NCBI GenBank assembly: GCA_021781215.1
Contig: JAJXXC010000004.1
Location: 66,975 to 130,974 of the forward strand
Length of the DNA: 64,000 bases
Direction: 5' to 3'
Source of the DNA: a bacterium
GTDB taxonomy: Bacteria > Patescibacteriota > Saccharimonadia > Saccharimonadales > DATKHC01
In this document: one piece after another, positions 2,051 to 43,420 of the stretch
Numbering within the stretch: the first letter of the stretch is position 1
How the letters are laid out: each line of letters starts with the position of its first letter
The notes under the pieces: model-generated
Seen by the model: only the letters and a program-made list of their open reading frames with translations
Told to the model about the DNA's origin: nothing
Databases searched by the model: none
Position numbers and translations under genes: made by a program

Positions 2051-2144
2051 ACAATAAGATTATCCCTCAATATTGTTTATACTATATCTCTAGTATAGAA
2101 GCCTTTTGCTAATTTTAGATACAAAATATGTTGTTATTTTAAAA

Positions 2145-25556: not shown

Positions 25557-25695
25557 CTCTTTATATTTAAATTTTAAATTAAACGTACGTGTCATTAATT
25601 AGTGACAATACGGTTATTCTAGCATTAACATTTTAATAATTCCACTTTTTATATTTCTTAATAAAATATAACAAGATATAATCAGTAGTTACTGT

Positions 25696-25769
25696 TGGGA
25701 GTTGGCCAAGCGGTAAGGCACTGGGTTCTGGTCCCAGGATCGGGGGTTCGAATCCCTCACTCCCAGCCA
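25696..25769 (+). tRNA. tRNA-Gln (anticodon CUG), CCA encoded
   Basis: Manual cloverleaf: acceptor TGGGAGT/ACTCCCA (U1:A72), D arm GCCA-AGCGGTA-AGGC, anticodon arm CTGGG-TTCTGGT-CCCAG, T arm GGGGG-TTCGAAT-CCCTC, discriminator G plus CCA. Total 74 nt. Confidence 0.9.
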
Positions 25770-27334: not shown

Positions 27335-27494
27335 TTATTGCTACTAGTATTACTATACTGCTTTATTTTAGCAAATTTCTAAAGGTATACACATACTTTT
27401 GAACTCTTGCAATTGAACTACTTAGCTTACAAGTTTAGTTTGTCTAGCATTAGCAATACTCTATAAGGTAGATCAGGTGTAAAATTAAATACAT

Positions 27495-29738
27495 ATGAGC
27501 AATTTTAAGAAAAACTCTGATGAACCGATTGTCTCACTCAAAGAAGATAGATTTGGAAGAGAAAACTTTTCTCACACCCTAGCGGATGCGTTGATAAAAG
27601 TGCCAAATAATCAGTCCATGACGGTTGGCTTATATGGTACCTGGGGAAGCGGTAAAACATCAATAATCAACATTGCCAAAGAATATCTAAATAGTAAGTA
27701 CGAAAATGATGTAATTATTGTTGAGTTCAATCCCTGGATTTTCTCATCAGTAGAAAGTCTGCATATGGCTTTTTTTAATTCATTAGCTGTAAAACTTCAC
27801 AAAAAATTAAAAACAAGGGGTCAAGAAGTAGGTGAAGCTATACAAAAATATGGTCAACTTACAGACCCTATTGGTAGTGCAGTAGGAATGTTACAGCCAC
27901 AAGTAAAATCTTTAGCAAAAATAATCGGTCAGGTCATTAGCGTATTTGGCTCTGCCTTAAATAAAACGGAAGATATTAACGCTATCAGAGTTAAGGTCAA
28001 TACAATTCTGGCTTCGTCTGGCAAAAGAGTTGTCGTAGTAATAGATGATATAGATAGGCTAGACAAAGATGAAGTGCATCAGGTGTTTAAGCTAGTCAAA
28101 AACGTAGCCCACTTCAAAAACGTTTCTTATTTACTATCATTTGACCGTGTTGTGGTAGCCGAAGCCTTATCAGAAAGGTATCCAAATAGTCCAAGTTTTG
28201 GCGGTAGCTTTATCGATAAAATAGTCCAGCTACCTCTTTTCGTGCCTAGCGTTGACCAGTTATTACTAAATAGATTTCTTACAGACGACCTTGATAGAAT
28301 CATCTCACAAAACAAACTAGATATAACAGAGAAAGATATGTCTCGCTTCCAGTCTGTTTTCTTCGCTCGAGATGCAGACAAGTTATTTGATACTCCCAGA
28401 AAGGTGGTACGTTATCTAAACACTGTTGACTTCTCTACAGAAAGTCTAGGTATTGAAACTTGCTTTACTGATACTGCCTTAATTGATTTAATTCGTAACT
28501 TCTACCCTGACCTTTATGAAAGTATTGCTTCCAATAAACTATTACTTTTGAATGGGATGCATGGCGATAGAGAAATCGAGAACGAGAAAGCTGCAGCCAG
28601 AAAGGCTGTATTTGGAACTGACAAGCCGTTTGCTATGGAAGCCATGCTTATTCGTGAATTATTCCCTAGTTTTGAATGGGCTTTAGGTGGGTCATCATAT
28701 TCTGGTGATTTTCTAAAAATCTGGGAAGACGAAAAAAGAGTTTGCTCAGAGAAATACTTTAATCGCTTTTTTGCTTATGACATACCAGTAGGTGATGTGG
28801 CAGACGCTAAAATAGATAGCTTCTTATTAACTCTTAGCTCACCAAAAACAACTATACCTATAGCCGAAAAAGCTTTTAAGGATATGAGTAAAAATAGCGA
28901 TCAGGCGTTATTGCTGTCTAAACTAAGAAGAAAAGAAGACGATCTCACTGAGACTGTCAGTAAAAAGCTTTCTCAGGTTATGGTTAATGTTGGCTTTAGC
29001 TTATCGAGACAAAGACAGGCTTTGGTGGGTGATATGTATTCACCATATGTACAATCGGCTATTCTAGCGATAAGACTAACTCGCAACATACAAAATCCAT
29101 ATAAGACACTAGAAAAGTACATAAAAAGCAGCCCAATTGATTATGCTGCTCAACTTTTTAATTGGATTAGAGTAAACACCGAGAAAGACAAAACTACTCA
29201 AGAAGACTTTGAGCCGTTAATTACACTTGATGAACTCGACAATTTAGGCAAGCTGATTGCTAATAGAATTAAGACTTATACCAATACGAAATATATCCAA
29301 ACTGACTTAACGCAAGATGTACCTTTCTTGATGTGGATTTGGCAAAAGTGGGGTAATAAGTCCGACATAAACAACTATTTTGCTAAAAGCTTTAAGAACA
29401 ATCCTGAAAGAGCTGTAGACTTTTTGATGACTTATGTAGGTGATGCTTGGGAGATAGGTACAGGCATAAAAACTCGATCTGAGTTCAGGAGAGAAGCCTA
29501 TGATCAAGTAGCCAAAGTTGTTGACCCTGAAGTTTTTATTAAACCGTTAATGACGCTATACGGTAAGGAAGTAAACGAGGGTGGGTTCAGCGATAGTCGG
29601 TTTGATAAAACTAAAGATTACAAGTTTCAGGTAGCTCAACAGTTCCTGTACATTAACCGTAATAAAGATAAAGTGGATAGTAATAAAGCAGCAGGAACTG
29701 AAGCTATCGAAGGTGAGGTCGTAGATACCGCAATATAA
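27495..29738 (+). CDS. KAP-family P-loop NTPase
   Basis: 747 aa with Walker A GLYGTWGSGKTS, Walker B/KAP motif VVVVIDDIDRLDKDE, and a long helical C-terminal half. Confidence 0.8.
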   Translation: MSNFKKNSDEPIVSLKEDRFGRENFSHTLADALIKVPNNQSMTVGLYGTWGSGKTSIINIAKEYLNSKYENDVIIVEFNPWIFSSVESLHMAFFNSLAVKLHKKLKTRGQEVGEAIQKYGQLTDPIGSAVGMLQPQVKSLAKIIGQVISVFGSALNKTEDINAIRVKVNTILASSGKRVVVVIDDIDRLDKDEVHQVFKLVKNVAHFKNVSYLLSFDRVVVAEALSERYPNSPSFGGSFIDKIVQLPLFVPSVDQLLLNRFLTDDLDRIISQNKLDITEKDMSRFQSVFFARDADKLFDTPRKVVRYLNTVDFSTESLGIETCFTDTALIDLIRNFYPDLYESIASNKLLLLNGMHGDREIENEKAAARKAVFGTDKPFAMEAMLIRELFPSFEWALGGSSYSGDFLKIWEDEKRVCSEKYFNRFFAYDIPVGDVADAKIDSFLLTLSSPKTTIPIAEKAFKDMSKNSDQALLLSKLRRKEDDLTETVSKKLSQVMVNVGFSLSRQRQALVGDMYSPYVQSAILAIRLTRNIQNPYKTLEKYIKSSPIDYAAQLFNWIRVNTEKDKTTQEDFEPLITLDELDNLGKLIANRIKTYTNTKYIQTDLTQDVPFLMWIWQKWGNKSDINNYFAKSFKNNPERAVDFLMTYVGDAWEIGTGIKTRSEFRREAYDQVAKVVDPEVFIKPLMTLYGKEVNEGGFSDSRFDKTKDYKFQVAQQFLYINRNKDKVDSNKAAGTEAIEGEVVDTAI

Positions 29739-29743
29739 GATAT

Positions 29744-30195
29744 TTAATCTGTCGAGGTATCAATCTCAAGCTCAATAGCTTCTGTTTCTTGATAGGTTTT
29801 TGCTTTAGTAACTATTAGCTTCTTAACAAACCTAAACTCTTTAGCTCTCTGTGCGTTACGCTTTTGTCTATCTTGACGGTCTTGCCACCACATGGCTACA
29901 TTTATATCTCCCCAATGTAGTGCTCAATTATGCTCGTAGCTCGGTTTGTAATTGTGTCTTGAGTGGCGGTTGTTTTGTCTCGAAACTCCACATTTTTTCA
30001 TCTCAGTATAAAAGACCGAGCGAGGCACACCAGACTTCACGCAACCCAATGATACGCCGACAGTACATCTACTTCATCACGACTTATCTTTGAGAGCTTG
30101 TCAGTAATGTGCATGCCTTGCAACACCTGAGCCTGTGGGTTGAACTTCTAAACTAGCTCGGCTGTCTTCTCCTCGTAATACTTGCCTTTCTTCAT
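29744..30195 (-). pseudogene. decayed paralog of the HTH gene at 31219..31653
   Basis: Manual translation gives fragments in three frames, interrupted by in-frame stops. MKKGKYYEEKTAELV* is followed by ..KISRDEVDVLSAYHWVA*, then GVPRSVFYTEMKK.., then ..MWWQDRQDRQKRNAQRAKEFRFVKKLIVTKAKTYQETEAIELE. These are colinear with GVSTSTYYKELAS...SRWWIDRQDKLERSAQRAKEYRLIKRLIITKTYQETQSVKLE. DNA similarity is visible between 29770-29890 and 31225-31345. Confidence 0.6.
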
Positions 30196-30282
30196 ATATA
30201 CATTTTACCCCACGTTGAGGTGTAAGATAGGCAGTTAGTATAGTCACGTTATGGACTAGGCTAGGCAACCTTGGATTATATA

Positions 30283-30879
30283 TCAGGGAACTAGCCACTC
30301 GCCAGTGCTTTGCAACAAACCACTTTGGGTTTGGAATTGTATCTTAGCGGCCTTGACGGCATCAGGAACTTGAAATACTACACATCCAGTAGTGCTTTCG
30401 CCGGGAGCTAATGTGTACTGTCCACTATTGAAATTAGTACATTCAGACACACTACTAAAGTCAGCTGTATAACTTTGGTTGTCTGTTCCTATTAGGGTGA
30501 CGTCACTGTTAGCGTCATCATTAAACGCAGCTGTGCCATTATTAACAATTTTTACATCTACTGCGACAAACCTTTTCCCAGCATCAGCAGTAGTATACTG
30601 GTCAACTCCGCTTGCAGGGTCAATCACCTGATTTAGCGTTACTGCTAAGCCTTTGCTTCCACCGACATCTACCGTTGAGCCAACGTGAGCCGTTGAATTT
30701 AATGGACTAGAACTAGGTTTATTGCTACTTGAACTCGTACCAGCCTTGCTTGCAGTTGTAGTTACGGTGGTTTTGTTACCACCAGCAGAAATTGAACCAA
30801 TAATTATTAAGGCCACTATCACACCAATTATACTCGACACTTTATGACGTCTAAAAAAACTTTTTTCCTTACTGCTCAT
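30283..30879 (-). CDS. DUF4352-like secreted/membrane-anchored Ig-fold protein
   Basis: 198 aa with an N-terminal TM helix, an S/T-rich linker, and a C-terminal domain (KRFVAVDVKIVNNG...TLAPGESTTGCVVFQVP) resembling DUF4352. GC content is visibly higher than in the neighbours. Confidence 0.65.
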   Translation of the reverse strand: MSSKEKSFFRRHKVSSIIGVIVALIIIGSISAGGNKTTVTTTASKAGTSSSSNKPSSSPLNSTAHVGSTVDVGGSKGLAVTLNQVIDPASGVDQYTTADAGKRFVAVDVKIVNNGTAAFNDDANSDVTLIGTDNQSYTADFSSVSECTNFNSGQYTLAPGESTTGCVVFQVPDAVKAAKIQFQTQSGLLQSTGEWLVP

Positions 30880-30985
30880 TTGTAAACTCCTAGCTTAACT
30901 TATATCTGTAAAGATAGCACATTAAATAACAAAAATAAACAACTAGTTTATGTAACTATCTGTTTATAATTCTTACCCTAAGTGT

Positions 30986-31213
30986 ATGAGCAATGCACAA
31001 GAACAAAAGTTGATGAAAGCCTTTGGTAAACGAATTTCTGAGGTTCGTAAAAGTCGTGGTGTTACACAACAACAGCTAGCTGAACATATAAATATGAGTG
31101 TTGTTGCTATCGCCTATATTGAAACTGGCAAGCGTTGGGCACGACTTGGAACGTTGAATAAGATAGCCAAAAGCCTGAAAGTAACTGTAGCTAACTTATT
31201 TGAAGGAATATAA
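30986..31213 (+). CDS. XRE-family helix-turn-helix regulator
   Basis: 75 aa with a typical Cro/CI HTH (RGVTQQQLAEHINMSVVAIAYIETGKR). Confidence 0.8.
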   Translation: MSNAQEQKLMKAFGKRISEVRKSRGVTQQQLAEHINMSVVAIAYIETGKRWARLGTLNKIAKSLKVTVANLFEGI

Positions 31214-31218
31214 ATTCC

Positions 31219-31653
31219 CTATTTTGTAAACATGTCTGTTTCAAGCTTAACGCTTTGTGTTTCTTGATAAGTTTTAGTGATGATAAGCCGTTTGATGAGC
31301 CGATATTCTTTGGCTCTCTGTGCACTTCTTTCAAGTTTGTCTTGACGATCAATCCACCAACGAGATGTTTGAACATCGTGTTGCTTTTCAATAGCATCCT
31401 TAACAACTAAGTTGGCAAAGATTGTGGTTTCATTCTGGGCAATAGTCATTTTGTCCGAAAATCTTTTATTACTAGCAAGTTCCTTGTAGTAAGTTGAAGT
31501 ACTGACACCAGATAGGACACAGGCACCACTAACGTTCATACCTTTCCTAAAACAATCAACTAGTTCTCGGACAACCACTGGCGTTATTGCTTTGGGTCGT
31601 CCAACGCTTTTACTAGGATTGTTTATCGCGAGTTGTTGTGACTGATTTATCAT
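31219..31653 (-). CDS. HTH protein resembling a phage terminase small subunit or excisionase-type DNA-binding protein
   Basis: 144 aa with an N-terminal GRPKAITP..HTH (GACVLSGVSTSTYYK) and a C-terminal SRWWIDRQ motif, as in small-terminase-like HTH proteins. Function is not proven. Confidence 0.5.
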   Translation of the reverse strand: MINQSQQLAINNPSKSVGRPKAITPVVVRELVDCFRKGMNVSGACVLSGVSTSTYYKELASNKRFSDKMTIAQNETTIFANLVVKDAIEKQHDVQTSRWWIDRQDKLERSAQRAKEYRLIKRLIITKTYQETQSVKLETDMFTK

Positions 31654-31706
31654 AGTCTTATTGTAACAAGATTCGCTGGTATGATGTAGTATTGGCTAAA
31701 GCTATA

Positions 31707-33290
31707 CTACCTAGCAGGCTGATCATTGACTTCTTTTTCAATGATCAGCATCTTGTTAAAGCTTCTCTCGACACTCTCAATAAATGTGTCTATTACTATG
31801 GGGAAGTCATCTTGTTTAACTACAGCACCGTCGTATATTTGTTCCATTATTATAGTTCTATTTTGGTTAGGAAAAGATATTTTTGTATATTCAATTTTTT
31901 TCTTGCGTGAAGCAGTATAATATGGTTTATTTGCCATCGCCACTCCAAAGCCAAAGTCCATTATTATCTTTGCCATCTTGACACTGTGTATCCTGAGAGT
32001 TCTATCATCGGGCTTATCCAAAGCCATAACCTCTACCTTTATAGCCTCAAGCTTTGATTTGTATTCTCTATTCAGAAGCAAGGTAAGTAGAGTGCCGGGT
32101 TTTGGGAACTCTTTTTCATCAAAGCTAATGTCTTTTCCATAAAGTAAAACCCCGTCCGACCAAATAATAAACCGGTCTTTTTTATAAATTTCTGAGAACA
32201 GATCAGCCTCATTAATAAAGGTTGCATCTACCGGGTATTCTCCAAAAGTTTTTGAATAGCCATTAGTAATTATATAAAAGTTTATATCTGATATATGAGC
32301 CTTAAACTCATTTCTAGCAGCACTTCCCACTAGATAGATCGATACCACAATATTGCCTAGTTCTTTTTCTGCAAACTCAACCATTGGATAGACCATAAGG
32401 TCAAGGGGCGACTTAATTTTGTCCTTACTCGCCTTATTCTCAATGTTCATAGAACCCAAAAACTCAGTATACTTAACCATAATTTTGGCTAACTCAATTG
32501 GATTAGTTTCAATTTTGAAATGCTTAATCAGTGCATCGGCCATCCTTTCGACGGTATATTCAATTTCAGTTATAGTTTTTTGCTGTTTTTTAACTAACTC
32601 TGATCTCAATTTATCATAGGCATCCTTACCTAGCTTCTCCATTCTAGTCTTACCATCCTCTGTTAGTTGCTGAGTAGGTGTTGGTTGAAGCATAATTTTA
32701 GACATTCTTATCTTTTGATAATCACTATTGAGAGCTAGTCTACTTGCAAAGTGATGATGCTGTGTTCTTCTTTTTAGTACAACACCTATTGGGTTATCAG
32801 ATTGTTCCAGCTTCTTTAGCAGTTCGTATACACCTATTTCCCCTAACTTGTCTTTATTCTTTTTGAGAAAACTAGCAAGCCTCATATTTTCTGGTTCAGA
32901 ATAAGCTTTCGGGAAAGGAGGCTCGGCAAACATAAGGTCTAGTAGTCTTAATAATTTGTCTTTGAACTGATGAACGAGATCAAGGAATATGCCATTGTAG
33001 TAGTTAATTAAGTCTTCTGGTTCATGAGTCTTGTGTTTAGTAGTAAGTTTTTCGTTGACGTTTGCAATTAGTTCGGATGTTAGTTTAAGTTCATTCAAAA
33101 CCCTTTCAATTTCACCAGCATATATATACCGATTCTCAAAGACCTTACGCTCAAAGGTTATTCTTTCAATAGCAGCATAGCCCGGTTCATCCATCTCTTT
33201 CTGAAGGTTGAGCATAAGTAAGCTCTGCCTTAACTTGGAGAACTCAGTATCTGGTACTCTTCTACTATTGACTGATACTTCTTCACCCAT
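31707..33290 (-). CDS. nucleotidyltransferase-fold protein with a long helical N-terminal region (possible HEPN-NTase-HEPN architecture)
   Basis: 527 aa with a minimal-NTase signature at aa 319-340, YLVGSAARNEFKAHISDINFYI (GS-x11-D-I-N). Rx4H motifs occur at aa 174-180 (RRTQHHH) and aa 430-435 (RTLRIH). Domain calls rest on motifs only. Confidence 0.55.
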   Translation of the reverse strand: MGEEVSVNSRRVPDTEFSKLRQSLLMLNLQKEMDEPGYAAIERITFERKVFENRYIYAGEIERVLNELKLTSELIANVNEKLTTKHKTHEPEDLINYYNGIFLDLVHQFKDKLLRLLDLMFAEPPFPKAYSEPENMRLASFLKKNKDKLGEIGVYELLKKLEQSDNPIGVVLKRRTQHHHFASRLALNSDYQKIRMSKIMLQPTPTQQLTEDGKTRMEKLGKDAYDKLRSELVKKQQKTITEIEYTVERMADALIKHFKIETNPIELAKIMVKYTEFLGSMNIENKASKDKIKSPLDLMVYPMVEFAEKELGNIVVSIYLVGSAARNEFKAHISDINFYIITNGYSKTFGEYPVDATFINEADLFSEIYKKDRFIIWSDGVLLYGKDISFDEKEFPKPGTLLTLLLNREYKSKLEAIKVEVMALDKPDDRTLRIHSVKMAKIIMDFGFGVAMANKPYYTASRKKKIEYTKISFPNQNRTIIMEQIYDGAVVKQDDFPIVIDTFIESVERSFNKMLIIEKEVNDQPAR

Positions 33291-33305
33291 AAACTTAGCT
33301 CTTTA

Positions 33306-33647
33306 TTATTTCTGTTTCTTTAACACAAGCCTTATTTTGTTTGGCTTTTTCTTCACTAGCCTGATAATGGCTTTATCTTGACTAAAGACGTTTTGCATTG
33401 CCCTGCTTATTACCACATCTAGGTTCAATCTTGCATTGGTTACTGATATTCTTTCAATATATAGGTTGTTACGCCCTTTGTCTGTGGCTAAACTTAGTGT
33501 CATTACTGAGCCATCATCTAATACAATCTCACCATTGTTACCGCTAGCGTCACCAATTTCAATCTCACTTAAGACAGATAATAAATCAGTGATACTCTTT
33601 AGCATTGTTTTTTGTTTACTGGACACTAATGTTTTGTTATAACTCAT
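33306..33647 (-). CDS. hypothetical 113-aa protein, first gene of the NTase operon
   Basis: ORF lies 15 nt upstream of the 527-aa gene on the same strand and has a lysine-rich C-terminus. No recognisable motif. Confidence 0.45.
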   Translation of the reverse strand: MSYNKTLVSSKQKTMLKSITDLLSVLSEIEIGDASGNNGEIVLDDGSVMTLSLATDKGRNNLYIERISVTNARLNLDVVISRAMQNVFSQDKAIIRLVKKKPNKIRLVLKKQK

Positions 33648-33805
33648 AGATTACCCCTCGTTGATACCTATATTTTATAATACTTGCGTTATTGCCGCTA
33701 ATTAAGTCATTTAGCATTTGCCCAAACTTATGCAAGCCAGCCATAACATCAGCACATGTGATATGCTCGGCATTACTAGGTACTGGTTCAAATTGAGTTT
33801 CATTT

Positions 33806-33822
33806 TCCCAGCCACAAGAGAT
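33806..33822 (+). repeat. att-like copy of the tRNA-Gln 3' terminus (candidate attR)
   Basis: TCCCAGCCAcaAGAGAT compared with TCCCAGCCAAGAGAT at 25761-25775. Confidence 0.45.
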
Positions 33823-34045
33823 TCGATCTTAAGCCAAATATCTAGTCACGACATCGTAAAACGTCCTCGACCGTCACCCACAGCAATCATGGATTCGAAC
33901 GTAAGTCAAACATGTAGTATGGTAAATGTATTTTTAGATCTAGTTACTCCGCAGAAATTTTACTTGTTAAAAATTATACGGAAGTTCAATTCCCTAGACT
34001 CCAAAATTTAATATCTATACTATTGGAGTAAACTAGGAGAATAAT

Positions 34046-34756
34046 ATGAGTCACGAGGCAAAAATTCACGAAGCACAGACAAAAATTTTACGAGAACTTT
34101 TATTCTTACCCAAAGCAAATTTCGCATTACTCCAAAAGGCCACAGGTCTAGAGGGTGACCATGCCAAATTCCATATTAAGCGATTAGTTGAGCTTGAATA
34201 TCTTAGCAAATCAAATGGCACCTATTCGCTCAGTATACGTGGTAAGGAATATGCAAATAAGCTTGATACTGACGTCAACACTATAGAACGCCAACCAAAA
34301 AGTACTACAATTTTGATAATTTGTCGTACGAAAAATGGCAAAAAAGAATACATCGCCCAAGAACGTCTAAAAAATCCATACTTTGGTTTTTGGGGTTTCC
34401 CAAGCGGTAAGATTCGCTGGGGTGAATCAATTTACGAAACTGCTGAACGTGAAATGACTGAAGAAACTGGATTATCTGGTGGTAAATGGGAGCATCGCGG
34501 AATTTATCACGAGAGAGTTCGTCACACAAACACAAAAGAAATTATAGAAGATAAGATTTTTCACATTATGTACACCGAGCACATATCAGGTGAATTAATT
34601 GAAAAATTTGAGGGTGGTAGAAATAAATGGATGGAACTAGAAGATATAAAGAAAAATCCTAAACATTACAAAAGCTTTGATATCGAAGCAGAGTTCGCTA
34701 TGCACCCTATCCCATTCATCGAAGCTCTTGACGAATACGACGACGGACAATTTTAA
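34046..34756 (+). CDS. NUDIX hydrolase with an N-terminal winged-helix domain
   Basis: 236 aa with a Nudix box GKIRWGESIYETAEREMTEETGL (GX5EX7REUXEEXGU) and an N-terminal wHTH-like region. Confidence 0.85.
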   Translation: MSHEAKIHEAQTKILRELLFLPKANFALLQKATGLEGDHAKFHIKRLVELEYLSKSNGTYSLSIRGKEYANKLDTDVNTIERQPKSTTILIICRTKNGKKEYIAQERLKNPYFGFWGFPSGKIRWGESIYETAEREMTEETGLSGGKWEHRGIYHERVRHTNTKEIIEDKIFHIMYTEHISGELIEKFEGGRNKWMELEDIKKNPKHYKSFDIEAEFAMHPIPFIEALDEYDDGQF

Positions 34757-34771
34757 TAACACTGTTGGAAT

Positions 34772-34878
34772 CTTATGCTATGCAAAAAAATCTAGACCGA
34801 CATACTCAGCCAATTTGGTAATATATAATCGCAATAACTTCTTAGTCTGAGCGGAAAACTACACCCAAGAGCCTTAGT
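34772..34878 (+). repeat. intergenic mosaic repeat, copy C (3' part of the unit plus the restart AGAGCCTTAGT)
   Basis: CTTATGCTA..AAATCTAGACCGACATACTCAGCCAATTTGGTAATATATAATCGCAATAACTTCTTAG aligns to copy A. AGAGCCTTAGT at 34868-34878 matches 37819-37829. Confidence 0.7.
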
Positions 34879-34892
34879 GTTACAATTTATAT

Positions 34893-35231
34893 ATGGCAAC
34901 GAATAAAACAAAAACATGGAAACCGACAGCAGCAGGAATTATGAGCCTAATAGTCGGCACTTTTACTGTTTACTATCACACGTTTGGCACTTTTACCAAT
35001 CACTGGCACATCCTTAATCTGATCATTCCCGACATCATAGGTCTTATTGCGTTAGTCGGTGGATTTTATGCTATTAAGCGGCACAGATGGGTAGTGGCAG
35101 TAGCCGGTGCAGTTTGTACTATGTATCCACCCCATCCATGGGGCAGTTTAGTATGGACTCCTGTTCTAGGCGTTATTGGTATCGTTCTTCTGATGCAATC
35201 TAAAAAAGAGTTTTCTGATGAAGAACAATAA
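34893..35231 (+). CDS. hypothetical small membrane protein (3 predicted TM helices)
   Basis: 112 aa with hydrophobic segments; no recognisable motif. Confidence 0.5.
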   Translation: MATNKTKTWKPTAAGIMSLIVGTFTVYYHTFGTFTNHWHILNLIIPDIIGLIALVGGFYAIKRHRWVVAVAGAVCTMYPPHPWGSLVWTPVLGVIGIVLLMQSKKEFSDEEQ

Positions 35232-35433
35232 ATTACTCGGTATCCCGACAGTTATATGGCTCCTTCAGCTGTTATATGTTGCTTTAGCACTTGGGTTATT
35301 TGCAATCCTATCACTCAAGCTACATAAGCAGGTACATCAACTGGCGTTTCAGCTTGAGTATGTCTTCATTATGGTCGTTATCAACATTGCTTGGCGTGTG
35401 ATTATCAAAATGAAAAATCCGGATTGGTTTTAA
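35218..35433 (+). CDS. hypothetical small membrane protein
   Basis: 71 aa with two hydrophobic segments; overlaps the upstream ORF by 14 nt. Confidence 0.4.
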   Translation: MKNNKLLGIPTVIWLLQLLYVALALGLFAILSLKLHKQVHQLAFQLEYVFIMVVINIAWRVIIKMKNPDWF

Positions 35434-35436
35434 ACA

Positions 35437-35565
35437 CTTATGCTAACAGAGCTTTCACACTCGCCATCGACACAGGGTCTACAATAAGAGTCAAAGTTCT
35501 GAAATCCGACCATGGTCCCAACCAATTTGGTAATATACAACCACGGTAACTTCTTAGCCCCAAGC
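35437..35565 (+). repeat. intergenic mosaic repeat, copy A (most complete unit)
   Basis: The 5' and middle parts (AGAGCTTTCACACTCGCCATCGA..GTCAAAGTTCTGAAATCCGACCATGGTCCCAACCA) share sequence with copy B. The flank and 3' part (CTTATGCTA, ..CCAATTTGGTAATATACAACCACGGTAACTTCTTAG) share sequence with copy C. Confidence 0.7.
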
Positions 35566-35635
35566 TGTCTTTTGTCTCATACTAATATGGTTTCCCATAT
35601 TTGATAAAACTTGTATTATTAGCAAAGAGAAATAC

Positions 35636-35992
35636 ATGGCAGACATCACAATTGAAAATGACGAATTGATTTTGAAGCTTTCAGCAGTAGAAAAAGCTGA
35701 AGCAGTACACGGCGACCTTCGTGTCCCACTTTCGGAGGTTCAAAAAGTCGAAGTAATAGATGATGCTCTAGAGATGACTCGCATCAAAACAGGATTCAAG
35801 GTCGGAATGAGGGCGCCTGGTTATGCAAGCGTAGCCGTTATCCGTCGTCCAAGATATAAAGCCTTTGTTGCAGTACACCATGATACACCTAAAGCAATTC
35901 GTGTTACCTTAGCAAGTGATTCATATAACGAATGGGTAGTAGGTGTTGCTAACCCAGAGTCAGTACTAGCCAGCCTAAATCTAAAAAAGTAA
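35636..35992 (+). CDS. hypothetical 118-aa soluble protein
   Basis: Clean ORF with locally higher GC and no firm motif. Confidence 0.5.
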   Translation: MADITIENDELILKLSAVEKAEAVHGDLRVPLSEVQKVEVIDDALEMTRIKTGFKVGMRAPGYASVAVIRRPRYKAFVAVHHDTPKAIRVTLASDSYNEWVVGVANPESVLASLNLKK

Positions 35993-36008
35993 CTAATAGT
36001 TAAGATTA

Positions 36009-36094
36009 GGCCAGAAGAGCCTTCACTCTCACCATTGATTCTGAGTCAATAGTAAGGGTCAAAGTTCGAAAATCCGACCTTGGTCTCAGCCAAG
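36009..36094 (+). repeat. intergenic mosaic repeat, copy B; tRNA-Gln-like relic
   Basis: Contains a 5-bp stem with a 7-nt loop, ATTGA-TTCTGAG-TCAAT (36034-36050), with CTG at the anticodon position. Downstream come GTTCGAAAATCC (T-loop-like) and TCTCAGCCAAG (36084-36094), compared with the tRNA TCCCAGCCAAG. The 5' edge GGCCAGA is nearly complementary to the 3' edge TCTCAGCC. Confidence 0.6.
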
Positions 36095-36281
36095 CATAAA
36101 CATTTAGAACACGCTAATGGCATTTAAGCGTTCACGGAACAAAGCATATGTAATGATAACAAAACCTCTACCTTTAAATAGGACAGCAGTCTTCCTTTAA
36201 CTTATATGCACCCCTATTACATCGGCTCAAATATATAACTTTTTACCACGTACACAAGTTTTTTTGGTATGATTTAGCTAA

Positions 36282-37007
36282 ATGACATCGGCAGTAAAAA
36301 TAAATAATCTATCTGTGGTTCTAGGGGGTCAAGTTAATGCCCTAAAGCATATCAACCTAGAAGTCCCCGAAGGTAAGATTACTGGTTTTATCGGACCATC
36401 GGGAGCGGGCAAGACTACTTTAATAAGATGTATAGTCGGCAGACTAGCAATACCCAAGGGATCAGTAGAGGTTTTTGGGTTGACGTCCGGTTCACCGAAA
36501 CTTCGTAGTAGGGTTTCGTATATGACCCAGGAATTATCGGTATATACGGACTTGACTGTAATTGAAAATCTTACATATTTTTCTAGAATGATTGGTCAAT
36601 CTAGGCGTGAAACAATCGACACCGTGAAAGATATTCTACAAACTATTAATATGTCTGATAAGGCGACTACATTGGTCGGTTGCTTATCTGGAGGACAAAA
36701 GCAAAGAGTGTCTTTAGCGATAGCTCTTATCGGTAAGCCAAAGTTAATGGTATTGGACGAGCCTACAATTGGTCTCGATCCGGCTCTTAGAGAAAATCTA
36801 TGGCAGCTTTTTTACAAAATTGCTGCAAGTGGTACGACACTCATAATCTCGAGTCACTCCATGGACGAAGCTAGAAGATGCGACGAATTGGTTTTGCTCC
36901 GTGAAGGAAAAGTAATCGCTTACGATTCCCCAAAAGAGCTACTTCACAAGACAGAAACTAAATCCGTAGAAGAGGCATTTTTAAAGCTAGTAAGTGAGAA
37001 ATCATGA
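36282..37007 (+). CDS. ABC transporter ATP-binding protein (ABC-2/DrrA-like)
   Basis: 241 aa with Walker A GPSGAGKTT, signature LSGGQKQR, and Walker B MVLDEP. Confidence 0.9.
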   Translation: MTSAVKINNLSVVLGGQVNALKHINLEVPEGKITGFIGPSGAGKTTLIRCIVGRLAIPKGSVEVFGLTSGSPKLRSRVSYMTQELSVYTDLTVIENLTYFSRMIGQSRRETIDTVKDILQTINMSDKATTLVGCLSGGQKQRVSLAIALIGKPKLMVLDEPTIGLDPALRENLWQLFYKIAASGTTLIISSHSMDEARRCDELVLLREGKVIAYDSPKELLHKTETKSVEEAFLKLVSEKS

Positions 37008-37744
37008 CTCTGATCAAAACATTCAGTACGGCCGGACGAGTATTACGTCAGCTTAAACACGACCCACGCACATTGTTTTTGTTATTTATTGTGCCCTCCG
37101 TCTTAATTATTGTTCTAAAATATGTATTTAACTCTAGAGCAGAGTCATTCAATTCCATTGCACCAATGCTTCTCGGAATCTTTCCTATGGTTATGATGTT
37201 TTTGATAACCTCAATAGCTACACTGAGAGAACGCCGAAGTGGGACGCTCGACAGACTTATGACAATGCCTATATCAAAGCTCGATTTCGTCCTGGGCTAC
37301 GCCATCGCCTTTTCGACCGTAGCCTTGCTCCAGGCGATAATTACAACCACAGTTATGCTAGGACTCTTACACGTACCGGTTATGGGCGGTACTTTTGCTA
37401 CTATTGTCGGTGCTGTATTTGCTGCTCTGCTGGGGACGGCTCTCGGTTTATTCTCCAGTGCTTTCGCAATGACCGAATTTCAAGCCATTCAGTTTATGCC
37501 AGCTTTCATCTTTCCCCAATTGCTCGTTTGTGGACTATTTGTAGCAAGAGATCAAATGACTAAAGTACTGCAATGGTTTGCCGATATTGTTCCCCTAACT
37601 TACAGCGTAGATGCCATGAAACAAGTAACAACTCAATCCAATTGGACTTATATACATACCAAAGATTTAATTATAGTAGCCTGTTTTACTATTGCAGCCC
37701 TCGTTCTCGGATCGATTACTATTCGTCGTCAATCAAAACCTTGA
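37004..37744 (+). CDS. ABC-2 type transporter permease
   Basis: 246 aa with about 6 TM segments; 4-nt overlap with the ATPase gene. Confidence 0.8.
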   Translation: MTLIKTFSTAGRVLRQLKHDPRTLFLLFIVPSVLIIVLKYVFNSRAESFNSIAPMLLGIFPMVMMFLITSIATLRERRSGTLDRLMTMPISKLDFVLGYAIAFSTVALLQAIITTTVMLGLLHVPVMGGTFATIVGAVFAALLGTALGLFSSAFAMTEFQAIQFMPAFIFPQLLVCGLFVARDQMTKVLQWFADIVPLTYSVDAMKQVTTQSNWTYIHTKDLIIVACFTIAALVLGSITIRRQSKP

Positions 37745-37806
37745 GTACGTTATAGTCATTACTGACATGGTACTAAAACTAGAATACTCATAAAATAGTA
37801 ATACAC

Positions 37807-37829
37807 GGCCAGACCAGTAGAGCCTTAGT
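37807..37829 (+). repeat. intergenic mosaic repeat, copy D (5' edge only)
   Basis: GGCCAGAccagtAGAGCCTTAGT matches the copy B 5' edge (GGCCAGAAGAGCCTT) and the copy C restart (AGAGCCTTAGT). Confidence 0.5.
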
Positions 37830-37900
37830 TTAACTGCTGCATAGATACTTCTGTCTATCTGATCACAGACATGCCGGTATAACCAATATACACTGAGTGT

Positions 37901-38706: not shown

Positions 38707-39954
38707 ATGACAAAAAACCTATTTCGATTCAAAAAAAGTGACAAAATATCACTAAGCAGTGATAACGTTAGGGCTGCGAGAGATTACATCAAAAACTACT
38801 GGAATACGCTGGAACGTTTTAGCCCGGAAGAAAATGATAGTCTGATAGGCCTACCGAAACCCTATTTAGTACCCGCCTATGAGAAGAGTCATAGTTTTGA
38901 TTTCAACGAACTATACTACTGGGATAGTTATTTTATGGTGCAAGGAATACTGGATGATGACCATAAAGAATTAGTTATGGGTATACTGGAGGATTTAATA
39001 AGTTTATTTAAGCGCTATAACGTTATTCCCAACGCATCTAGAACCTACTTAACTGGGCACTCTCAGCCGCCCCTATTAACTAGTTTTATTTGGGATGTTT
39101 ATGACGCTTACAAACTTAACAACGAATGGTTAAGGGAAAAAATTGAAATAGCTAAGGCAGAGTATAGGACCGTATGGATGGGTACCAAAAAACCAAATGA
39201 AAGGTTGATATATAAGAATCTTTCGCGATACTACGACATTAATCACATAGACGATTTAGCAGAAACTGAAAGTGGCTGGGATATGACTCCACGATTCAAT
39301 CACCGTGCGCTAAATTATCTTCCCATTGATTTAAATAGTCTGCTCTATAAATATGAGGCTGATTTTGCTAAAACAGCTGATGCCCTTGGTGATGAACAAG
39401 AGGCGAGGCTATGGAGAAAAGCCATGGATCAAAGAGCCAATACTATAAATGAACTCATGTGGGACAAGGGCAATAATCTATATTACGACTATAATTTTAC
39501 CAAGCATAAACTTAGTCATGTTGGATCACTAGCTAGTTTCTATCCGTTATGGAGTGGTATGGCTAATGAGTATCAGGCAAAGAAACTAGTAAAAAGTTTG
39601 GCGCGTTTTGAATACAAGGGTGGCCTATCGGCTACCGACAACTCAACATTTAGTCGATTCATGCCCTACTCAATTAACATGCAGTGGGCTTATCCAAATG
39701 GCTGGGCGCCACTGCATTTTATGATAGTTTATGGTTTACAGCGTTATGGCTACCACGAAGATGCGCGTCGAGTTGCAATGAAATGGCTCAAAACTAACTT
39801 AGACTGGTTCAATAAACATGGCGTTTTCTTAGAAAAATACAATGTAGTTCAACCCGAAGAACCGCCAGCAAAAGGACTCTACCCTTCTCAAACTGGTTTT
39901 GGCTGGACAAATGCGGTTTTTGAACGATTCTGCCAGGACTTCATAGACAAATAA
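38707..39954 (+). CDS. alpha,alpha-trehalase (GH37)
   Basis: 415 aa with trehalase signatures: ELYYWDSYFMVQG (signature-1-like) and QWAYPNGWAPLHF (signature-2-like). Confidence 0.85.
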   Translation: MTKNLFRFKKSDKISLSSDNVRAARDYIKNYWNTLERFSPEENDSLIGLPKPYLVPAYEKSHSFDFNELYYWDSYFMVQGILDDDHKELVMGILEDLISLFKRYNVIPNASRTYLTGHSQPPLLTSFIWDVYDAYKLNNEWLREKIEIAKAEYRTVWMGTKKPNERLIYKNLSRYYDINHIDDLAETESGWDMTPRFNHRALNYLPIDLNSLLYKYEADFAKTADALGDEQEARLWRKAMDQRANTINELMWDKGNNLYYDYNFTKHKLSHVGSLASFYPLWSGMANEYQAKKLVKSLARFEYKGGLSATDNSTFSRFMPYSINMQWAYPNGWAPLHFMIVYGLQRYGYHEDARRVAMKWLKTNLDWFNKHGVFLEKYNVVQPEEPPAKGLYPSQTGFGWTNAVFERFCQDFIDK

Positions 39955-40022
39955 TCTTCTGGAGCTAGTTAACGCATAATCATAAGCCCTGCTTGCTACA
40001 CTATAATTTTTTGCTTATAGTA

Positions 40023-40940
40023 ATGCTTATGGATAGCGTATTAGTTACTACCAAACTTTCTAAAAAATATCCAAACGCAAATGTATATGCACTTAAGAAC
40101 CTGACACTTAATGTTGGACCTGGCGAAGTCTACGGTTTTTTAGGACCAAATGGCGCCGGTAAATCAACGGCAATTAGGACGCTGATGAATTTTATTCAGC
40201 CAACAAGCGGTAGCGCAACAATCTTAGGCCGCGATATTATTAAAGATTCTGTAAAAATTAAACAAGAAATTGGTTATCTTGCCGGGGACGGCGCAGTCTA
40301 TAACAAAATGACCGGTCGTCAGTATTTAGAGTATCTAGGCGAGCTGCAACCACCATCCTCCAAGACATACCAGCAAGAACTCACAAAACGTCTCCAGGCC
40401 ACTTTAAATAAACCCCTAGGGTCACTTTCGCGTGGTAATCGACAAAAGATTTCTATCATCCAAGCATTTATGCACCAACCTAAGCTACTTATTTTAGATG
40501 AGCCGAGTAGTGGACTAGATCCATTGATGCAAGAAGTGTTCTATGAACTGATTGCCGAATCAAAAGCTCGTGGAGCTGCAGTTTTTATGAGTAGTCATAT
40601 TTTGAGTGAAGTTCAAAAAATATGTGATCGAGTCGGAATTATTCGTAATGGAGAGCTAGTGACCGAACGAAATATCGCCGAAATGGCTGAAGAGGCTGCT
40701 CAGACTTTTGACTTAACTTTTAAAGATAACCTACCTGTTAGTAAATTAAAAAATCTTGCTTGCGTACAGAAGCTAGTCGAGAATAGTCCTCATAGCGTTA
40801 CCTTACAAGTCAGAGGTGAGCTTGCACCTTTATTCTCGATATTAGCTCAATACACCGTTACCAATATTGATACTCGTACGCTCGATTTAGAAGAAGCCTT
40901 TATGCATTACTATCAGCCCCGAGAGGACAGACATGTTTAG
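40023..40940 (+). CDS. ABC transporter ATP-binding protein
   Basis: Walker A GPNGAGKST, signature LSRGNRQK, Walker B LILDEP. Start set at the in-frame ATG at 40023; the track ORF begins at a TTG at 39993. Confidence 0.85.
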   Translation: MLMDSVLVTTKLSKKYPNANVYALKNLTLNVGPGEVYGFLGPNGAGKSTAIRTLMNFIQPTSGSATILGRDIIKDSVKIKQEIGYLAGDGAVYNKMTGRQYLEYLGELQPPSSKTYQQELTKRLQATLNKPLGSLSRGNRQKISIIQAFMHQPKLLILDEPSSGLDPLMQEVFYELIAESKARGAAVFMSSHILSEVQKICDRVGIIRNGELVTERNIAEMAEEAAQTFDLTFKDNLPVSKLKNLACVQKLVENSPHSVTLQVRGELAPLFSILAQYTVTNIDTRTLDLEEAFMHYYQPREDRHV

Positions 40941-41724
40941 TGTTTTTAAATGGACTTTGTGGCAACGCCGTTGGAGTACGTTATGGTGGAGCTTGGGTAT
41001 AGTCAGTTTAATAACCCTGACTTTATCGTTTTATCCAACCATCCATAATCAGGCCGCTCAACTCAATAAAAGTTTTGGCAGTTTAAATAATAGTACACTT
41101 GCCTTATTTGGTGGCACGGATTTTTTTTCACCAGTCGGTTATCTTAATAGCCAATTAATATATTTAATGCTACCCTTGTTATTAATAATTTTGGGCGTTG
41201 GCCTAGGTAGTAGCTTAATAGGCCGCGAGGAATCCGAGGGAACGATAGAGCTACTACTTGCTCGACCCATATCACGTCCTCGCCTTATCTTGGCAAAGGC
41301 TTTAGCGGGAGCTTTTATAATATTTTTAGTAACTACAATTGGCTCGTTAGTCACCATCGGCTTAGCTAAGGTAGTAAACATGGGCATCCCACTCACAAAC
41401 ATTGCGATGGCGTGCCTAGCATGTTTTATGTTAGTACTAACCTTCAGCGCCATCGCCTTTTTGCTGTCCTCTACCGGTAGGGGTCGAGCTTCAGCTCTCG
41501 GAATTACTATAGTTTATACCCTTGGTGGTTACATTATTGGCTCGCTCGCTAATACCGTACACGGGCTCCGAATTCCTAGTATGCTCTTCCCGTATCATTA
41601 CTACCAATCGGCCGACATCTTGCGAGGCACATTTAATTGGAGTTCGATTACATTTTTTGGAATCTTCATAGGTGTGTGTTTAATACTTGCCCTACTAAGC
41701 TTCAGGCGTCGAGACCTTGGATAA
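40933..41724 (+). CDS. ABC-2 family permease
   Basis: 263 aa with about 6 TM segments; 8-nt overlap with the ATPase gene. Confidence 0.7.
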   Translation: MFSVFKWTLWQRRWSTLWWSLGIVSLITLTLSFYPTIHNQAAQLNKSFGSLNNSTLALFGGTDFFSPVGYLNSQLIYLMLPLLLIILGVGLGSSLIGREESEGTIELLLARPISRPRLILAKALAGAFIIFLVTTIGSLVTIGLAKVVNMGIPLTNIAMACLACFMLVLTFSAIAFLLSSTGRGRASALGITIVYTLGGYIIGSLANTVHGLRIPSMLFPYHYYQSADILRGTFNWSSITFFGIFIGVCLILALLSFRRRDLG

Positions 41725-41794
41725 AAGATTATCTATTGAATTTTTAAGCAATAGTACTATAGTCACTAAATAGGAGATTCAATTAAAACAAAAA

Positions 41795-43006
41795 ATGAGA
41801 ATCGCATCTGAACAGAAGGAGTTAGTTAGAGCCCAGATAGATAGAGGTGAGGTGGTAACCTTATTGGGGAACACTGTTTTGGATAGTATCTCAAACGATC
41901 AAATATTCAATCCTGCAATAACAAGTCAAGAAATTATTTTGGAACCTATGCTACCCCAATTAGCCCGACGCTTAGAGCAAACACCAACTTTAGGGATCCA
42001 TGAGGTTAAAGGTAGCGAAGGACTTTTTAACGTAACGGTACTAGACAATGGTGGGGTTAAATATTTATTTGGCCGAAAGGTGCAGGAAGCTGCTGAACAG
42101 GGTCAACCAGATTTTGGTTCCTTGGTTATGGCCGAGCTTGGGCCGGATAATAACATTATATCCATGGATGAGGTGTGGAACCCCAAAGGACAAGATATTT
42201 TAATTGAAGACCCTCGAGCTCATCAAACTATTGATGGCAAAACTATTATTGGAGTTACCGCCGTTAGGCAATCGGAGGAGAACAAGACATATCCAGCCTT
42301 TATAAAACTGGACTCTCCGGATCGGTTGTTGACACACCCCTTCCCCAAGCTACACATTATTGAAAAGTTTGGAAATGGTAGTCAAGCTACGCCATTAGGT
42401 GAAACAACTAAGGGTAAAAATGCCACAACAGTCGATGCAACGCATATTATGTATAGACCCGATGGGCTGAATCACGCCCTGCAAGTATTTGAGTATATAA
42501 ATAATGACGCTAATCACGTAGGTTTTATAGATTTCCCGAAAGATATCCCTGGAGCAACATATAAAATCGGGACAACCACCCCTCCCGAATGGATCAATGA
42601 TCATGAAGCATTTTTCATATTTCATGGGATTGATAAAACTATAGACGGCAAAGTCGTGGATCCCGACACAATAGATGATCGAGTTATCTATCACTACTCA
42701 ATCCATACAGCAAGACTCTTGAAATCAATTAACGATCAAGGGGAAACATTGTTTTCGGTAGACAATATTAGTCGGGCGCCGATAATAACTCCCGATTCAT
42801 TTCCTAGACTAAATGATAGTCGTCAAATTGAACTTCACCCTGAGATAAGACGAGTGACATATAGCTGCGGCGGAACAGCTATTAAAAATCCAGAGGGGCA
42901 ATTAATTCAAGAAAAACTTTTTGTAAATCAAGGTGATAAACGTACTTGGGTAGTAATTATTGATGCAGTCGCAATAATCTCCAGTTGGGATCGTAGACTT
43001 AAGTAA
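41795..43006 (+). CDS. hypothetical 403-aa protein
   Basis: Long clean ORF with no motif I can name; lies between the ABC-2 exporter and the PQ-loop gene. Confidence 0.5.
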   Translation: MRIASEQKELVRAQIDRGEVVTLLGNTVLDSISNDQIFNPAITSQEIILEPMLPQLARRLEQTPTLGIHEVKGSEGLFNVTVLDNGGVKYLFGRKVQEAAEQGQPDFGSLVMAELGPDNNIISMDEVWNPKGQDILIEDPRAHQTIDGKTIIGVTAVRQSEENKTYPAFIKLDSPDRLLTHPFPKLHIIEKFGNGSQATPLGETTKGKNATTVDATHIMYRPDGLNHALQVFEYINNDANHVGFIDFPKDIPGATYKIGTTTPPEWINDHEAFFIFHGIDKTIDGKVVDPDTIDDRVIYHYSIHTARLLKSINDQGETLFSVDNISRAPIITPDSFPRLNDSRQIELHPEIRRVTYSCGGTAIKNPEGQLIQEKLFVNQGDKRTWVVIIDAVAIISSWDRRLK

Positions 43007-43078
43007 TTAGCAGCAGAAATCGAACATACCTAAACTTTGGTCTATTTCTGAATTCTATTGCTCTGATAAAAGATAGTC

Positions 43079-43420
43079 GTGATAAAATTAGGTATGCATT
43101 ATCTCGGGTTGCGTCATAAACATGAACGTACAATAGCACACAAAAAACACAATAAAACATCGTATAAAATATGGCTAGATAAGGTCACGTTTGTCGCTGG
43201 AATAGTTGGACCTTTTACCGTTCTGCCACAAATTTATAGTATATTCACCACAAAATCTGCGGCAGGCGTTTCGCTGCTAACCTGGGCTCTTATATTCATC
43301 GTAACCTTCCCATGGATTTTATATGGTATAGCTCACAGAGAAAAGAGTATAATCGTAAGCTTTATCTTATGGGAAATTGCCAACCTTTTAGTTGTTATTG
43401 GGGTGCTGTTATATCACTAA
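43079..43420 (+). CDS. PQ-loop / SemiSWEET-like 3-TM membrane protein
   Basis: Three hydrophobic helices with an LPQ motif (GPFTVLPQIYSIF). The start codon is uncertain because the basic N-terminal extension may not be translated. Confidence 0.5.
   Translation: MIKLGMHYLGLRHKHERTIAHKKHNKTSYKIWLDKVTFVAGIVGPFTVLPQIYSIFTTKSAAGVSLLTWALIFIVTFPWILYGIAHREKSIIVSFILWEIANLLVVIGVLLYH

Follow-up and report, generated by a model that had tools for sequence, protein, structure and literature searches.

What are the short repeats that stand between single genes in a Saccharibacteria (TM7) genome segment, and what do they have to do with the genes that they separate? The question arises in a 64-kb stretch of contig JAJXXC010000004.1 (the whole analysed stretch, 64,000 nt, is called the window below), which is nearly identical to the metagenome-assembled genome (MAG) contig DAIEGS010000002.1. 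A first-pass annotation described four intergenic spacers, between positions 34,772 and 37,829, as pieces of one unit of about 130 nt in a layout resembling a gene-cassette array. It is proposed here, with a probability of about 0.65, that the four spacers mark where small integrative modules adjoin in a tandem array, built by site-specific accretion at the 3′ end of a tRNA-Gln(CTG) gene, with an 88-nt element, termed E, as the right-end attachment site. The first-pass annotation had recognised the repeats and overlooked the tRNA-Gln anchor 9 kb upstream, the tRNA-mimicking tail of the repeat and the large serine recombinase (LSR) encoded at the tRNA gene.

The repeats in the spacers are real. 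Positions 35438–35525 and 36006–36093 share 76% identity over 88 nt, 34807–34845 and 35519–35557 share 85% over 39 nt, and 34868–34883 and 37819–37834 share 88% over 16 nt; the window contains the 22-nt core motif twice, and not one of 100 shuffles produced a match. Every identity listed in the first-pass annotation was found in its place, with copy letters consistent with A starting at 35437, B at 36009, C at 34772 and D at 37807, and the distances of 14 nt and 71 nt to the next ATG are correct. A motif scan returned no further copies elsewhere in the 64-kb window. The single unit of about 130 nt, on the other hand, resolves into two parts, the 88-nt E and a 33-nt segment, Y, which are arranged in the window as follows (bit scores are from R1, a covariance model built from the E alignment):

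34772 to 34812, + strand: degenerate E as read against the E consensus, with the lead CTTATGCTA, the palindrome deleted and a tail-like end ...ACATACTCAGCCA.
34813 to 34845, + strand: Y copy 1 (ATTTGGTAATATATAATCGCAATAACTTCTTAG), with which the next module begins; it follows tRNA-Gln in the related locus L063.
34846 to 34883, + strand: degenerate tail TCTGAGCGGAAAACTACACCCA, then AGAGCCTTAGTGTTAC, which resembles the E 5′ end; the right part of copy C, conserved in the corresponding L063 block.
35437 to 35524, + strand: E copy, 94.8 bits, with lead at 35437–35447, palindrome at 35448–35500, tail at 35501–35524 and a mutated core CCCAACCA.
35525 to 35557, + strand: Y copy 2, the start of the module that encodes a 118-aa protein.
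36005 to 36092, + strand: E copy, 99.2 bits, core CTCAGCCA.
37807 to 37834, + strand: possible truncated E 5′ piece, GGCCAGA..AGAGCCTTAGTTTAAC; a weak match, not significant alone.

For the last of these (copy D), the 11-mer by itself is not significant (30 of 100 shuffles gave at least two matches with at most one mismatch); some support comes from its extension to 14 of 16 positions and from GGCCAGA immediately before it, a match to the lead of the 36005 copy. There is no support for recombination at the second recurrent junction that had been suggested to follow AGAGCCTT. What stands at 34868, AGAGCCTTAGTG, is an inherited stretch from the interior of a single module; the block that contains it also follows tRNA-Gln in L063. 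Among the non-redundant loci scanned, the 11-mer AGAGCCTTAGT is exact only at two window sites and in the L063 ortholog.

E comprises a 12-nt lead (TTAnGCTAAC-like), a 24-bp imperfect palindrome (AGAGCCTTCACTCTTGCCATTGAC / GTCAATAGCAAGAGTCAAAGTTCT) enclosing a 5-nt loop, and a 24-nt tail (GAAATCCGACCATAGTCCCAGCCA) that ends in the 8-nt core CCCAGCCA. E closes a module and Y (ATTTGGTAAYATACAACCACAGTAACTTCTTAG, that is, ATTTGGTAATATA...CTTAG) opens the following one. At 15 junctions Y always lies directly after a core, be it that of an E-type tail or of a real tRNA-Gln, and conservation across the E alignment drops sharply past ...CAGCCA. Scanning one genome per species for the core motif yielded 13 real loci, nearly all labelled Saccharibacteria or Saccharimonadales, and a metagenome scan added 25 more. 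R1 recognised 44 E copies above its 73-bit threshold in 29 loci, with five copies in L050 and three each in L008, L019 and L040. Copies at one locus always share the same orientation and are often 0.5–1.7 kb apart, while strict-pattern matches are found at only one or two loci per representative genome.

The palindrome is well kept across the alignment, 78.8% of cells being paired as against 29–38% when the partner columns are slid. Its covariation (0.060) equals that of shuffles (0.059), and its mismatches are conserved. Searches of Rfam, at the gathering threshold and at E values up to 10, found no family at the repeats, and promoter and terminator scans stayed at chance level, with no signal in E or Y and no T-run. 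A conserved palindrome without covariation, Rfam match or promoter and terminator signal points to a DNA site read by a protein rather than to an RNA. Folds of single sequences were unremarkable, except for the minus strand of the copy at 36000–36100 (z = −3.2). Several other identities for E were considered and set aside: group II intron domain V, suggested by an AGC...GTT base, has the wrong stem length; half-sites of the XerCD/dif type (TTATGC / GCATAA) lack a paired site; pairing between lead and tail shows no covariation; and E plus Y read as a dyad is not significant against shuffles.

The spacers are borders of exchangeable gene modules, as the first-pass annotation had surmised, and the module content differs between related genomes. 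Three modules of the window (33815–34812, 34813–35524 and 35525–36092) have a core-bearing right end and no recombinase, the anatomy of a cis-mobilizable element (CIME). Their contents are:

33815 to 34812, + strand: NUDIX module (gene at 34046–34756), ending in the degenerate E; absent from L063.
34893 to 35433, + strand: cargo of two small genes, 112 and 71 aa, with no Pfam family.
35636 to 35992, + strand: cargo, a 118-aa protein of unknown function.

One comparison is with the related L063 (MAG contig DAIEGT010000002.1), where tRNA-Gln is joined directly to Y, AGAGCCTTAGTG, genes for 111 and 71 aa and E, and where positions 9909–10629 are 90.6% identical to window block 34801–35524. Because tRNA-Gln is joined there directly to the block that occupies 34813–35524 in the window, 9,043 bp (25770–34812) appear as an insertion at the core. 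This insert lies between the core and ATTTGG, has duplicated the core, and equals the LSR element plus the NUDIX module. Homology of the window E copy with both L019 and L063 stops at 35524; downstream of the shared block, the modules of the window and L063 differ until a shared ABC transporter (39993–41724).

Other loci show modules in differing settings. L008 and L050 share, between unrelated flanks, a module of 657 nt at 98% identity. A module that comes after an E copy in L050 stands in L051 behind a real tRNA-Gln (87% identity); another follows tRNA-Gln(TTG) and a remnant in L052, and E, Y and a tail in L008 (82%); the Doc/Fic module is preceded by an E copy in L018 and L032, and in L016 by a tRNA-like fragment. 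In every such case identity begins right after CCA, and ...CAGCCA, proposed in the first-pass annotation as a recurrent junction, is exactly where homology between genomes stops and starts. The tandem modules each end in a copy of the core, and it is at that core that relatives differ. Cargo genes lie on either strand in L008. The median identity of E copies is 81.8% within an array and 83.0% between genomes; this equal divergence argues that the modules were acquired separately, without local duplication or homogenisation. Homologs of the 118-aa cargo protein occur in many other contexts and lineages, without E and without another repeat family.

The array starts from a tRNA gene, which lies in the window at:

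25696 to 25769, + strand: tRNA-Gln(CTG), the array anchor (ARAGORN, Rfam), whose last 8 nt, CCCAGCCA (25762–25769), are the attL core.

ARAGORN found a tRNA in 10 E-bearing loci, and in 10 of 10 it is tRNA-Gln (CTG or TTG), upstream of E and on the same strand; L063 likewise has tRNA-Gln upstream of E on the same strand. As far as this could be tested, the repeat does not occur in random contexts, all loci with enough context being downstream of tRNA-Gln. The E tail GTTCTGAAATCCGACCATAGTCCCAGCCA (GTTC.GAAATCC...CCCAGCCA) also resembles the tRNA-Gln 3′ end GGTTCGAATCCCTCACTCCCAGCCA, its GTTC-to-core distance being 5 nt longer than that of the tRNA. Beyond the E copies, 15 tail-like matches lie on the array strand and none on the opposite strand.

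Two spacing classes emerge when the distance from TTC to the core is measured. All 19 genuine ends or fragments of tRNA have 15 nt, and 42 non-tRNA tails have 20 nt; these tails belong to several families of unrelated sequence and include the attP arm of the LSR element. Just three cases have another distance. In the window, the tRNA (25747–25769) represents the shorter class, and 35497–35524, 36065–36092 and 33787–33814 the longer. A spacing held so strictly in tail families of unrelated sequence argues for recognition by a protein rather than for homology. In structural work on serine integrases, attP half-sites are about 5 bp longer than attB half-sites; if this holds here, the E tails would be attP-type half-sites.

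Further families of module ends have only the GTTC motif, the spacing and the core in common and were missed by R1:

L011, 4843 to 4870 and 5925 to 5952: module ends.
L050, 3416 to 3443 and 13831 to 13858: module ends.
L047, 4354 to 4382: module end.
L059, − strand, core starts at 4262, 3748, 2974 and 2783: module ends.

The arrays are on this evidence longer and more diverse than E counts imply. In L047, a hybrid tail at 3372–3399 combines an E-type 5′ part (TTCTGAAATCCGACC) with a tRNA-type 3′ part (TCATCCCCAGCCA) and looks as if an E tail and a tRNA-Gln end had once exchanged parts. Two apparent tails were discarded: CTTATGCAAGCCAGCCA at 33736–33743 is coding sequence of the detached LSR C-terminus described below, and 9 nt (GAAATCCGA) that the E tail has in common with the P′ arm of the L061 attP are out of register, absent from the P′ arm of the window and were treated as chance.

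A candidate enzyme is encoded at the tRNA gene. The sole recombinase annotated in the window is the LSR, and, in agreement with the first-pass annotation, there is no integron-type integrase among the annotated genes of the window. The features of the LSR element are:

25757 to 27334, − strand: LSR in its integrated, truncated form of 525 aa (Pfam Resolvase, E = 1e-22).
25770 to 33814: integrated LSR element, 8,045 bp, with CCCAGCCA at both sides, delimited by comparison of attL and attR with the attP of L061.
27495 to 33647: element cargo, comprising a KAP-family NTPase, a DUF4352 protein, an XRE-type helix-turn-helix protein, and proteins of 527, 144 and 113 aa without clear family.
33640 to 33813, − strand: detached LSR C-terminus of 56–58 codons (GWENETQFEPVPSNAEH...VIYEL), matching the C-terminus of the unsplit homolog P0070.
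33786 to 33814, + strand: attR left arm and core, GTTCAAATTGAGTTTCATTTT[CCCAGCCA], a P-type half-site of the 20-nt class; the same arm is present in L059, L060 and the attP of L061.
33815 to 33828, + strand: B′, the right half of the reconstructed attB, CAAGAGATTCGATC, an inverted copy of the tRNA T-loop region; the same start follows E in L055.

The integrated LSR gene runs into the tRNA-Gln 3′ end, which contains its last four codons and its stop codon. The 525-aa protein shows a CxxC...CxxxxC motif, relatives (L016, L033 and many others) match PF07508 (Recombinase) and PF13408 (Zn-ribbon), and sequence similarity to solved structures is confined to the catalytic domain. L057 and L059 have homologs of 84–85% identity that adjoin tRNA-Gln likewise, and L060 has one of 70% identity that adjoins a 23-nt fragment of tRNA-Gln; more distant LSRs are found in L033, 83 nt past an E copy, and in L016, after a tRNA-like tail. 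The junction of CCCAGCCA with AGAGATAATT is conserved among the related LSR loci.

The attachment sites can be reconstructed from L061, a 4,669-nt contig with a terminal overlap of 122 nt, which implies a circle of about 4.5 kb. It encodes the unsplit homolog P0070 (580 aa, at 1998–3740) and carries an intact attP, ...GGTTCAAATTGAGTAACATTTT[CCCAGCCA]AGAGATAATTTTTCGG..., which consists of the left side of the window attR (33786–33814) joined to the right side of the window attL. The attP, ...GTTCAAATTGAG..CATTTT[CCCAGCCA]AGAGATAATT..., sits inside the 3′ end of the recombinase gene. From this match it follows that the LSR element occupies 25770–33814, that the crossover falls within the 8-nt core CCCAGCCA, and that the recombinase gene is severed on integration. 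The reconstructed attB, GTTCGAATCCCTCACT[CCCAGCCA]CAAGAGATTCGATC, is the T-loop/acceptor 3′ end of tRNA-Gln followed by an inverted copy downstream. It forms a 38-bp dyad centred in the core, with 22 of 38 positions self-complementary, a value reached by 0.1% of shuffles; the dyad of the 53-bp attP is weak, being reached by 1.4% of shuffles for L061 and by 13% for the window. Known LSR sites are imperfect dyads of about 40 bp (attB) and about 50 bp (attP) with half-sites of unequal length, and the 15- and 20-nt spacing classes fit this rule of unequal half-sites.

Judged from these junctions, the LSR element integrates by recombination between attP and attB, which share the core, and integration at the tRNA-Gln 3′ end splits the LSR gene, leaving the 580-aa form contiguous only in the excised circle. 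The integrated LSR is 525 aa long, its end codons being supplied by the tRNA, and the excised circle encodes 580 aa; database homologs of 545–557 aa read on into the antisense tRNA (...GIRTPE...). A KAP-family NTPase is also present in the L060 element, and the cargo may be a defence or addiction module. The E and attP patterns were absent from the viral contigs searched, as was the 129-nt unit from the plasmid and phage collections searched.

It is proposed that E is the right-end attachment site of modules of one or two genes that lack a recombinase. The E tail would act as an attP-type half-site, so that recombinases of the LSR family would act in trans on small modules, and the LSR would move these recombinase-less modules. 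Each insertion would leave a new usable core, hence the growth resembling that of a cassette array, and the E and Y at 35437–35557 would be the joint of one module's right end with the left end of the next. A stronger version, a true gene-cassette system of Saccharibacteria run by a serine recombinase, with 88-nt attP-type module ends, tRNA-Gln as primary site and the 525- and 580-aa forms possibly setting direction, is conceivable and is advanced only tentatively.

Several observations weigh against accretion by the LSR. To the right of the core the sequence starts in 56 different ways (with sub-families Y, CAAGAGATTCGAWC and AGCCAAAAATTCGAAC), conservation reaches no more than 0.24 bit per position, and in general neither a right half-site nor an inverted GAAC occurs at the expected distance after the core. 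As a dimeric serine recombinase is expected to need a right half-site, this unconserved right side is a difficulty. The 60 nt of lead and palindrome are as conserved as the tail, which a role as half-site leaves unexplained. Furthermore, the LSR is found at only about six of some thirty distinct arrays (most loci being 8 kb or less), its circular form L061 carries no E, and no circular contig other than L061, and no excised small E-module circle, was found.

Most of these observations favour the view that only the LSR element is site-specifically mobile and that the small modules are swapped by homologous recombination, for example after DNA uptake, via E and its tails, with E a relic of old att sites. 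Unconserved right sides, missing small-module circles, an LSR circle without E and conservation of all 88 nt rather than of a mere half-site are all accommodated, as is the L047 tail that joins an E-type to a tRNA-type part. This explanation is nevertheless judged unlikely: shared blocks end exactly at CCA and not within E, E copies resemble each other no better inside one array than across genomes, the 20-nt spacing is strictly kept in tail families of unrelated sequence, and 75–85% identity over 88 nt is a poor substrate. An account of E as a structured RNA, be it a small RNA, a stabiliser or terminator within a 3′ UTR, a riboswitch or a tRNA-like signal for processing, could draw on the long hairpin, the folding of the minus strand at 36000–36100 and the tRNA-like CCA end of the tail. 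It appears improbable in the face of shuffle-level covariation with conserved mismatches, the empty Rfam search, the lack of a T-run and chance-level terminator and promoter signals; neighbouring genes also lie on either strand, and E coincides with breakpoints of DNA homology.

Accretion at tRNA-Gln must also be set against two classes of DNA repeat. In an integron, or a cluster of attC sites lacking an integron integrase (CALIN), E would be attC and the modules cassettes moved by a tyrosine integron integrase encoded elsewhere. The one- or two-gene modules, each followed by an imperfect palindrome with conserved mismatches in one orientation, recall such arrays, as does cargo resembling toxin–antitoxin genes (Doc/Fic, PIN). 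The details speak strongly the other way: no RYYYAAC/GTTRRRY boxes close the palindrome arms (AGAGCCTT.../...AAAGTTCT), the palindrome ends 24 nt short of the junction, which sits at a tRNA-like CCA end (CCCAGCCA), the arrays begin at tRNA-Gln and not at intI/attI, and cargo in L008 is encoded on either strand. Among the called genes of the window, L057, L059, L060 and L063 there is no Phage_integrase match, and this family is not among the 25 commonest families in 139 neighbouring open reading frames (ORFs), a ranking that could miss singletons. An integron is accordingly considered very improbable. Little more can be said for a generic miniature inverted-repeat transposable element or repetitive extragenic palindrome unrelated to module mobility. 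E is indeed short, intergenic, palindromic and multi-copy, yet its copies are flanked by neither terminal inverted repeats nor target-site duplications, keep a uniform orientation per locus and, wherever there is enough context, lie downstream of tRNA-Gln; with strict matches at just one or two loci per representative genome and no transposase recurring nearby, such an origin is scarcely credible.

Genes beside the E copies add to the picture of the cargo. A 125-aa gene of the Doc/Fic family lies near E in six loci (L016 4336–4713, L018 1720–2097, L020 2612–3001, L032 7124–7501, L036 and L043) and in L016, L018 and L032 no other gene separates it from the preceding E or tRNA-like tail; a PIN-domain gene forms another module in L016 (5021–5464). 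Such toxin-type cargo resembles that of chromosomal integron arrays. Downstream of the last clear E copy, an ABC ATPase gene is intact in the window (36282–37007) and is called as two ORFs in L001 (10647–11364; GCA_027356125.1), which reflects either a frameshift there or the window being another assembly of the same population. In L055, a trehalase gene directly follows an E copy, with the same CAAGAGATTCGAAC start as at window position 33815, and is followed by a PQ-loop gene. In the window (38707–43420) the trehalase gene comes after a cupin gene, and a block of ABC, ABC2 and 403-aa genes (39993–43006) separates it from the PQ-loop gene; this rearrangement implies that the variable region reaches past the last recognisable E. 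Elsewhere in the window, a SAM riboswitch (25458–25569, − strand, 56 bits) precedes metK (24276–25394, − strand) immediately upstream of the tRNA-Gln anchor, and a metallo-beta-lactamase-fold protein encoded at 55276–56088 (− strand) has a Pfam match to the anti-Pycsar Apyc1 family.

Among known systems, the closest precedents are the ssrA genomic islands (ssrA-GIs) of Dehalococcoides and the arrays of staphylococcal cassette chromosome (SCC) elements. McMurdie et al. (2011, PMC3146451) described tandem ssrA-GIs downstream of the tmRNA gene, bounded by 20-bp repeats of its 3′ end, with the serine integrase DsiB, a CcrB homolog of about 540 aa, encoded on the reverse strand next to attL. An additional conserved motif lies upstream of the repeat and does not match the RNA gene, and many of the islands lack an integrase and were interpreted as cis-mobilizable elements (PMC3146451). 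The tRNA-Gln array is likewise tandem, set at the 3′ end of a single RNA gene, with an LSR on the reverse strand by attL, additional conserved sequence beside the repeat and integrase-less units. It differs in its target, tRNA-Gln instead of tmRNA, with the crossover at the acceptor/CCA end; in its modules, often just 0.5–1.7 kb with one gene; and in its right end, a conserved 88-nt element with a 24-bp palindrome that imitates the tRNA end at a spacing 5 nt longer. Moreover, no second small recombinase of the DsiA type was seen at the tRNA-Gln array, and its LSR gene spans attP and is split on integration.

SCC and SCCmec elements are integrated by the LSRs CcrAB or CcrC at the 3′ end of a conserved gene, rlmH (orfX), and carry a copy of the integration site, so that elements and integrase-less pseudo-elements stack in tandem with conservation mainly on one side. 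The tRNA-Gln array shares this stacking at an LSR-type site and the one-sided conservation of its junctions. SCC elements span 20–60 kb and target a protein-coding gene, without tRNA mimicry or a split integrase gene; the present array, in contrast, has a tRNA target, cassette-sized modules, tRNA mimicry and a split integrase gene.

The CIMEs found beside integrative conjugative elements (ICEs) or beside integrative mobilizable elements, as with ICESt1/ICESt3, are integrase-less, flanked by att sites, accreted in tandem and mobilised in trans. Those systems use tyrosine integrases and large elements, whereas the tRNA-Gln modules are cassette-sized and the candidate enzyme is a serine recombinase. 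With integrons the array shares its layout, namely units of one or two genes ending in a palindromic site, a fixed primary site and variable content; unlike them, it lacks IntI and R″/R′ boxes, its primary site is a tRNA gene, and its enzyme is probably a serine recombinase acting on double-stranded sites. Classical tRNA-targeting islands and prophages, among which tandem islands are common, use a tyrosine integrase and duplicate the tRNA end as a direct repeat. Here there is no tyrosine integrase, and the repeat is a conserved mimic with shifted spacing rather than a copy of the host tRNA. A literature search on Saccharibacteria or Patescibacteria found no paper describing such tRNA-Gln arrays. 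Similar islands are known, the miniature, cassette-like form not being among them; the tRNA-Gln target, the 88-nt mimic end, the two spacing classes and the split integrase gene also set the present array apart.

Saccharibacteria and other bacteria of the candidate phyla radiation (CPR) have tiny genomes with few recognised mobile elements, and, to our knowledge, how accessory genes are gained and exchanged in CPR bacteria is poorly understood. The tRNA-Gln locus offers a concrete route for such exchange, a hot spot at which single-gene modules are stacked and swapped, with cargo that includes transporters, NUDIX proteins, Doc and PIN toxins, restriction–modification genes and hydrolases. Its defined sites (attB, attP and the 88-nt module end), candidate enzyme and circular form make the proposal directly testable. 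If a serine recombinase does move the small modules, the array would represent convergence with integrons on a cassette system, and it would supply a compact recombinase with its sites, of possible use as a tool, as well as a marker with which to find variable regions in metagenome bins of CPR bacteria.

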